The translations under genes were made by a program, and so were the position numbers. Positions 932 to 1,144 of a stretch of DNA of 64,000 nucleotides are shown piece by piece. A model generated the notes under the pieces. It had not been told where the DNA came from. It was given only the letters and a program-made list of their open reading frames with translations, and searched no databases. The stretch lies in the IMG/VR virus record IMGVR_UViG_3300044878_000059, positions 64,001-128,000 of that record; one strand, given 5' to 3'. The first letter of the stretch is position 1. Every line of letters begins with the position of its first letter. This DNA is from a virus (taxonomy: Duplodnaviria; Heunggongvirae; Uroviricota; Caudoviricetes).

Positions 932-1144
932 GATGTGGTTTGATGGTGTGCTATTACGCCAAAGGGAATCCAGCCTTACCGTTTCCGGGGTGCCTCGCTA
1001 CTGCCAGCGTTGGGTTCGTCTAACCTGATTGGATGATTCCGGGCCTATAACCCACAACCACCACACATAGTACGAATGATCCAAAACCTTGCCCACTCTT
1101 TAAAGGGTGGCTGCTTCTAAGCCAACCTCCCATCAACCTACATC
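932..1144 (-). ncRNA. structured RNA mimicking the 23S rRNA GTPase-associated centre (H42-H44) with a 135-nt insert
   Basis: GGAGGTTGGCTTAGAAGCAGCCACCCTTTAAAGAGT (1130-1095) and GCGTAATAGCACAC (959-946), closed by GATGT-A-GGT-TGATGG / CCATCA-A-ACC-ACATC. Confidence 0.85.

Follow-up and report, generated by a model that had tools for sequence, protein, structure and literature searches.

The window analysed here, a stretch of 64,000 nucleotides (nt) that covers positions 64,001 to 128,000 of the IMG/VR virus record IMGVR_UViG_3300044878_000059, carries at 1144-932 an element of 213 nt that copies the GTPase-associated centre (GAC) of bacterial 23S rRNA. The record represents a virus of 140,081 base pairs (bp), in which the element is present once. 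The features described in the window are all encoded on the minus strand and are listed from 5′ to 3′. An open reading frame (ORF) of 50 amino acids (aa) at 1304-1152 lies upstream, with its stop codon 8 nt before the element, and tRNA-Met(CAU), matched by both ARAGORN and Rfam, lies downstream at 926-850; other 23S sequence is absent from these flanks. The element ends at 932 and the tRNA starts at 926, so that the spacer (931-927) has the 5 nt described in an initial annotation that was made from the sequence alone. Cleavage by RNase P at the 5′ end of tRNA-Met would leave a tail of about 5 nt at the 3′ end of the RNA. Promoter-like or terminator-like sites around the element were no more frequent than in shuffled sequence. 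As neither a promoter nor a terminator lies between the upstream ORF and the RNA, the latter is probably cut from a longer transcript of the tRNA operon, and its location there makes release by tRNA processing possible.

The ends of the element, 1144-1131 and 945-932, pair in a closing helix of 14 bp that stands in place of helix 42 (H42) of the rRNA and whose sequence is not conserved in the family described below. The three paired segments that had been proposed for it (1144-1140/936-932, 1138-1136/939-937 and 1135-1130/946-941) were all recovered. Within this helix, the 5′ half of the GAC copy (1130-1095) corresponds to 23S positions 1055-1090, an assignment based on the sequence match and on covariation in the family, and includes H43 (1128-1104), A1067 of the 1067 loop (window position 1118) and the UUAAA of 23S 1082-1086 (1103-1099). 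The 3′ half (959-946) corresponds to 23S 1091-1104 and forms the tip of H44 with its GUAAUA loop. With A1067 at 1118 and A1095 at 955, the two loops are intact, as the initial annotation had noted. A1101 (949) pairs with U1090 (1095). The halves are separated by an insert whose length of 135 nt (1094-960) was also confirmed. Most of it is a domain that we term class A (1094-964), which about 30 of 125 family members have. This domain starts from a GGG/CCC base stem (1094-1092/966-964) supported by covariation in the family, and continues with a variable hairpin region (approximately 1084-1010), a purine-rich junction, GGCAGUAGCGA (1005-995; consensus GG-N-RAAGUR-N3-4 in an alignment of 33 class A members), and a conserved hairpin (994-972) that covaries across class A members and consists of a GGC/GCU outer stem, an ACC/UAAG internal loop, a CCG/CGG inner stem and a GAAA tetraloop. 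A UUUG linker (963-960) connects the insert stem to G1091.

Agreement with 23S rRNA and conservation of the fold

Aligned with the 23S rRNA of Salmonella LT2, which is identical to that of E. coli within the compared region, the 5′ half matched at 31 of 36 positions and the 3′ half at 13 of 14, the same counts and positions as in the initial annotation. The best 36-mer match to 23S in 50 shuffles of the window reached only 23 of 36. Identity of the 5′ half rose to 34 of 36 with Pseudomonadales 23S of the Acinetobacter type, which reads CCACCCUUUAAAGAAA; genuine 23S of a Pseudomonas genome reads GGAGGUUGGC...CCAUCCUUU. The departures from E. coli had been interpreted as structural compensations made by the phage. 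This interpretation did not survive the comparison, since G1058-C1080 and C1078 are the usual state in Pseudomonadales 23S, and GU at 1089-1090, which is normal in many phyla, is the usual state in Flavobacteriaceae, Acidimicrobiales and Clostridiaceae. Judged by these alignments, the features specific to the family relative to rRNA are A1101, the insert and the linker (UUUG here) alone; genuine 23S continues directly from 1090 into GCGUAA. The bacterial large subunit (LSU) model (RF02541) gave no match to the window at E values up to 10. Infernal aligned the LSU model to the 5′ half of one other member, L017, over model positions 1084-1153 and with 31 bits, below the threshold. Reads of genuine 23S rRNA from four metatranscriptome runs piled up on window positions 1094-1130 at 90% identity or more.

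In each case in which the host was known and its rRNA could be read, admittedly a small sample, the 1058-1080 pair of the element was the same as that of the host: G-C in four Pseudomonas phages from two genera, U-A in GAP32 (Mimasvirus) and CBB, which are phages of Enterobacterales, and U-A in an element from Clostridiaceae (L080), as in the 23S rRNA of its own assembly. Family-wide, three pair types are used about equally at this position. The agreement with the host points to recognition by a host component, as far as can be read from these sequences.

To avoid circularity, pairing in the 5′ half was scored in 102 members that were found through the 3′ motif, after removal of forms with two inserts, and was compared with 2000 column shuffles; as the members are related, the result should be read as indicative and not as a probability. 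None of the shuffles reached the observed pairing at 1058-1080 (U-A 34, G-C 33, A-U 26, C-G 5), 1057-1081 (A-U 96, C-G 6), 1064-1074 (C-G 94, A-U 7) and 1062-1076, nor at the isolated tertiary pair 1082-1086 (U-A 61, C-G 25, A-U 12). The same result was obtained for the closing helix, in which covariation extends over about 9 bp beside the core, with as many as six pair types at a position, and for the insert-base stem, in which 4 bp covary with three to six pair types. RNAalifold, run unguided on 21 members, predicted the closing helix, H43, the insert-base stem and the H44 tip. This covariation argues that the fold of the element is under selection. Other positions hardly change: all 111 members have G1059, U1060, G1063, C1072 and C1075, there is next to no variation at the pairs G1062-C1076, G1063-C1075 and C1064-G1074, the alignment of 21 members (A1) shows no change in the G-C and C-G pairs of the H44 tip, and every member has A at 1101 opposite U1090. 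At position 1067, 84% of the members have A and 14% have G, whereas 1096 and 1097 can be any base. A fixed folded core with drifting exposed loop bases would suit a binder that reads the fold, such as uL11. In six Flavobacteriaceae genomes (L294-L299), the genuine 23S rRNA reads UUGGAAG, with G in place of A at 1067, and an additional U follows 1078. Not all bacteria thus have A1067, and there is a natural counterpart to the members of the phage family with G at this position.

The loop bases also bear on a different role, in which the RNA would be a decoy substrate or competitive inhibitor of an enzyme that attacks the GAC, such as a toxin or an anti-phage effector by which H43/H44 is modified or cleaved, and would thereby protect the ribosomes that the phage needs. 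Phage tRNA arrays are thought to counter RNA-directed defences, and a host-like core would suit an enzyme tuned to host rRNA. There is also a natural precedent in Tre23, which ADP-ribosylates 23S H44 within 1095-1098 and blocks the GTPase activity of EF-G (PMC8661411). However, positions 1096 and 1097 of the loop targeted by Tre23 vary freely in the family and A1067 is not invariant, and a stoichiometric decoy would perform poorly against a catalytic toxin. No anti-phage system directed at the GAC is known to us, and on balance we consider an enzyme decoy unlikely.

Distribution, insert domains and genomic setting of the family

BLASTN searches against phage genomes reported homologues that keep the split motifs: matches in two pieces were found in the Pseudomonas phages Milchi, Astolliot, pf16 and UNO-G1W1 and in Aeromonas phage 4_4572, and in the Xanthomonas jumbo phage XacN1 the 5′ half was found by BLASTN and the 3′ motif by reading the sequence. 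The jumbo phages GAP32, CBB, Kaldavass and XbC2 were recovered with a shorter query, and the cultured carriers include phages of Pseudomonas, Aeromonas, Xanthomonas, Cronobacter and Pectobacterium. A match in Paenibacillus phage Pd_22F turned out to be ordinary 23S rRNA in that record and was not counted as a member. Scanning IMG/VR with the 5′-half motif gave 53 loci, 52 of them split elements and one genuine 23S, and the 3′-half motif gave at least 119 loci; the two scans combined yielded at least 111 distinct members with both halves, on viral contigs. A covariance model (R1) of 26 members, from which the window and its close relatives had been left out, matched the window at 935-1141 on the minus strand with 90.2 bits (E 3e-26), and this was its sole match in the 64 kb. 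In contigs of bacterial genomes the 3′ motif had 120 matches, of which 102 are attributed to chance, as expected from the information content of the pattern, and 18 are genuine. These genuine copies lie mostly on tRNA-dense contigs of metagenome-assembled genomes, and the contigs are phage-like in appearance.

The RNA family appears to be undescribed, in line with the initial annotation. No Rfam 15 family corresponds to the element in scans of the window at the gathering thresholds and at E≤10 and of five other members at E≤1, where the sole match among the scanned members was the sub-threshold one of bacterial LSU to the 5′ half of L017, and a full-text literature search found no description of such an RNA. 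None of the GenBank records of the matched cultured phages annotates an RNA at the site. Hypothetical ORFs are annotated antisense over the element in Milchi (CDS0161, L001:1534-1665) and UNO-G1W1 (CDS0126, L004:1572-1679); these calls are probably spurious, given the covariation of the RNA and the variable length of the insert.

In every member the extra helix is located exactly between U1090 and G1091. Insert lengths lie between 27 and 369 nt (median 131), and the helix is followed by a YUUUR linker that is nearly invariant in 43 distinct members; as these were found through the 5′ motif alone, conservation of the linker was not imposed by the search. The strand 1099-1102 is uninterrupted, and the two halves of H44 could therefore stay stacked while the insert projects sideways. 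Class A hairpins vary in a compensatory manner, with GGC/GCU, GCC/GGU, GUC/GAC or GAC/GUC as the outer stem and G-C, G-U, A-U or U-A as the pair closing the loop. A second class of inserts, with the motif GGGGAAGGACAAG, is common to XacN1, GAP32 and two further members (L011, L047). Of the insert stems in the initial annotation, covariation supports CCG-GAAA-CGG (988-979) but not GGAATC/GATTCC, since part of GATTCC (966-965) belongs to the GGG/CCC base stem, and several of the stems proposed there are not the conserved ones. Derivation of the insert from another region of 23S was rejected, as local alignment of 43 inserts with full 23S gave no significant similarity, with z-scores mostly below 2 and scattered targets. 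Some members (L249, L252, L276, L277 and L284) have a second inserted hairpin of about 20-30 nt on the 3′ strand of H43, at 1077/1078-1079.

The conserved accessory domains, that is class A and the class of XacN1, GAP32, L011 and L047, might suggest that the GAC fold is only a rigid structural module and that the activity resides elsewhere, for instance in RNA-only assemblies resembling those of other ornate phage RNAs and involving no ribosomal protein; the GNRA-type loop and the A-rich internal loop of class A are of a kind typical of RNA-RNA docking. However, the smallest members, of about 100 nt, consist of almost nothing beyond the GAC, their insert being a plain hairpin of 27-29 nt. Since the shortest inserts are such plain hairpins, a function common to the family must sit in the GAC module. 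In addition, the core stays rRNA-like and host-like where plain pairing would do. The purely structural role is in our view rather improbable.

The size of the inserts is informative also on the origin of the element. The identity of its core to Pseudomonadales rRNA could hint at a captured or decaying piece of 23S, or at an rRNA fragment with a group I intron, and for the latter it can be added that a U precedes the insert, whose last base is usually G. In contrast, the shortest inserts, of 27 nt, are much too small for a group I intron, 6 of the 21 members of alignment A1 have A and not G as the final base of the insert, and the Rfam intron models had no match to the element in the window or in five other members. 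The intron, or split rRNA, was accordingly rejected, its size, the missing catalytic core and the variable terminal base all contradicting it. As to capture, there is no flanking 23S, the closing helix is unrelated to H42, and in more than 100 diverged homologues compensatory changes have preserved the split motifs, the closing helix and the tertiary pair. These observations bear out the initial annotation, which had seen a maintained mimic in the element and not a stray fragment, and leave both capture and an intron highly improbable.

Members usually lie within or beside a tRNA array, and their surroundings were examined at 54 loci. All the tRNAs there are on the strand of the element, and many elements start 5-8 nt past one tRNA or stop just ahead of the next; in the genome of the window, the minus strand carries all 32 tRNAs, and transcription reaches the element before any of them. 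The neighbours vary, as elements are found between different tRNAs, ahead of ORFs, or alone before a terminator. The last case is that of XacN1 (L006:1735-1790), whose element lies outside any tRNA array, after a gene for a 2′-5′ RNA ligase and directly before a strong terminator composed of a hairpin and a U-run, and looks like the end of a transcript. In several contigs (L034, L092/L128) a phage tmRNA is encoded on the same strand, 0.2-2 kb from the element. No RNA sequencing run is catalogued as containing the stretch. In a soil metatranscriptome (X13), contigs of relatives, about 94% identical and with a depth of about 3, span the junctions of ORF and element and of element and tRNA, although they could derive from carried-over DNA. 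The contig joints in another run (X14) have sides of 21-24 nt and fall off the predicted splice boundaries; they were considered unreliable and were not used.

Such a setting could also befit a regulator acting in cis or at the level of the operon, or a processing element, that would sense free uL11 and tune the neighbouring tRNAs and ORFs. The element is always within polycistronic transcripts of tRNAs and ORFs, and rRNA mimicry for feedback control is established in bacterial ribosomal-protein operons. Against this, no neighbouring gene is fixed, a stable closing helix immediately next to tRNAs speaks for an RNA that is released, and in the window and the five other members scanned there was no match to L10_leader or other Rfam leader models. 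We regard regulation of the operon as quite unlikely.

A putative decoy for host uL11

A stand-alone, conserved copy of the GAC exists as a family of phage RNAs among tRNA genes, with its fold kept. As for its role, our tentative reading, to which we assign a probability of roughly 0.45, is that the RNA is a free decoy or sponge that binds host uL11. We rank it first on the basis of the conserved core, the absence of the uL10 site and the lack of a phage L11 gene in the genomes searched. The initial annotation had regarded the L10 site as rebuilt along with that of L11, which we could not uphold: the sequence of the H42-like helix is free, without a conserved bulge or kink, and in the window it is unrelated to H42 of genuine 23S. 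Because this helix keeps no sequence, the element does not reproduce the uL10 site. A search of five element-carrying genomes found no phage gene for L11, and so the uL11 partner would be the protein of the host. It is established that the isolated 58-nt GAC domain binds uL11 tightly through its tertiary fold, and that uL11 reads the fold of the RNA.

According to this reading, a stable, trans-acting RNA of about 213 nt would be transcribed with the tRNA cluster and probably trimmed by tRNA-processing enzymes. Its two ends would assemble into the compact H43/H44 fold of the GAC, with the variable accessory domain leaving H44 between U1090 and G1091, and in the cytoplasm it would offer host uL11 a second high-affinity site. 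A resulting shortage of uL11 may weaken the activation of RelA by uncharged tRNA, which is a likely side effect of a flood of phage tRNAs and would carry the risk of triggering RelA. Synthesis of guanosine tetraphosphate (ppGpp) by RelA requires L11 (PMC4463622). The shortage could possibly also weaken termination that depends on release factor 1 (RF1). A lack of L11 shifts termination towards read-through of UAG.

Several considerations weigh against a uL11 decoy. Ribosome-bound uL11 is abundant and already occupied, so that a sponge would need a high copy number or a higher affinity. The extra helix and the UUUR linker, present in all members, would be superfluous in a plain uL11 site, and the second hairpin of a few members sits in or next to the stem that uL11 contacts. 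Two elements binned with metagenome-assembled genomes of Flavobacteriaceae and Acidimicrobiales do not match the rRNA of those lineages, although the binning of phage contigs is unreliable. Finally, the sole evidence from RNA libraries consists of the low-depth contigs of relatives, which might be DNA carried over.

Two sets of observations prompt a further alternative, in which the RNA, together with host uL11 and, in some phages, stalk-like parts, would form a factor-binding site off the ribosome that engages translational GTPases, release factors or RelA-tRNA. The first is a hairpin of the sarcin-ricin type (GCAU AGUA C GGGA G GAA AUGC) in the 313-nt insert of one member (L018, viral contig IMGVR_UViG_3300007354_000004), about 273 nt into the element. 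The second is a protein of 125 aa resembling bL12, encoded in the genome of the window and in Milchi. The ORF of the former (L292:1246-1623, minus strand; approximately 41864-42241 of contig C1 of the genome, G000) lies in the tRNA region, outside the window, and gives this phage a second element related to the stalk. Its residues 14-41 match positions 8-35 of the C-terminal domain of bL12 (L7/L12) with 25.8 bits, against a Pfam cut-off of 25.9; the matching stretch resembles the factor-binding helices, and the match of the Milchi counterpart is weaker. The sarcin-ricin-like hairpin, however, was found in just 1 of 125 members and not in the window, and the bL12-like ORF is not present in pf16, XacN1 or GAP32. 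In addition, the isolated complex of GAC and L11 binds factors weakly. A platform of this kind is of low probability in our estimate.

The uL11 decoy can be extended in a related direction. RNA loaded with uL11, in some phages with the bL12-like protein or the sarcin-ricin-like hairpin, might constitute a free 'mini stalk base' that reprogrammes translation. We find this extension doubtful. If it were true, the phage could switch off the sensing by RelA of its own uncharged tRNAs and could weaken RF1, letting the amber-suppressor tRNA(CUA) read UAG, and this would be the first known case of a viral RNA that mimics a functional ribosomal centre.

An amber-suppressor tRNA(CUA) is encoded in the genome of the window (G000 contig C1, 43276-43351, minus strand), outside the window itself, and TAG ends 14 of the 183 long ORFs of this genome. 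Recoding of a stop codon genome-wide was rejected, as stop-to-stop frames of at least 100 aa in the standard code cover 91% of the genome. Among 124 family loci, ten have a suppressor tRNA in the flanking DNA covered by the analysis, a figure for which there is no baseline for comparison; nine are CUA (L037, L054, L192, L195, L215, L236, L238, L244 and L246) and one is UCA (L198).

Comparison with known systems

Among the translation components known from phages are tRNAs, tmRNA and a small number of ribosomal proteins, but to our knowledge no copy of a functional domain of rRNA has been described in them. Widespread and strongly conserved imitation of the uL11 site in phage tRNA operons would constitute a new viral route to manipulate translation or the stringent response. 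The family explains why phage tRNA arrays repeatedly show gaps without annotation, some of them filled in GenBank records with spurious antisense ORFs. It provides a compact and directly testable element in the cultured Pseudomonas phages Milchi, Astolliot, pf16 and UNO-G1W1, and, for structural work on RNA, a natural series of GAC variants with a site that tolerates insertions.

The closest likeness is to the bacterial GAC itself (H43/H44 and the end of H42, E. coli 1051-1108, the 58-nt fragment bound by uL11 and thiostrepton), with which the element shares the secondary structure, the core nucleotides, the 1082-1086 pair and the 1067 and 1095 loops. In contrast to it, the phage element is a stand-alone RNA (about 213 nt) without other 23S sequence, an arbitrary helix replaces H42, a domain and a UUUR linker are added between 1090 and 1091, and U1101 is changed to A, which pairs with U1090. 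The leaders of ribosomal-protein operons (L10_leader, RF00557, and those of L1 and S15) are likewise mimics of rRNA sites that bind a ribosomal protein off the ribosome. They are, however, cis-acting 5′ untranslated regions of bacterial mRNAs and loose mimics, whereas the phage element is near-exact and probably released. No ribosomal-protein gene was found downstream of the element, which sets it apart from the leaders, and we know of no leader for uL11.

Phage non-coding RNAs encoded among or near tRNA genes and processed together with them include the T4 species 1 and 2 RNAs (rnaC and rnaD) and ROOL/GOLLD, which are likewise of unknown function. The T4 RNAs were considered as relatives and rejected, having no GAC-like sequence and no similarity to the element. 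At its 3′ end, T4 rnaC (L290:2909-3047, minus strand) has a tRNA-like T-arm sequence (GGTTCGAATCCCGG), unrelated to the phage GAC family. Phage-encoded ribosomal proteins, such as bS21 and bL12 domains, are also phage copies of components of the stalk or of translation, and in viral bL12 domains the residues in contact with L11 and elongation factors are retained (Mizuno et al., bioRxiv 10.1101/174177). Unlike the phage GAC RNA, which cannot be incorporated, these proteins enter the ribosome.

The logic proposed here, by which an abundant RNA titrates a host factor through mimicry of its natural nucleic-acid ligand, is that of sponge and decoy RNAs such as 6S RNA, CsrB/RsmZ and the pseudo-ToxI of phage PhiTE, the last being a case of RNA mimicry used by a phage (PMC3475682). 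The target and the fold of the phage element differ from those of these RNAs, and its sponge role is a proposal; as a system, it would be a variant of the protein-sponge or mimic RNAs.

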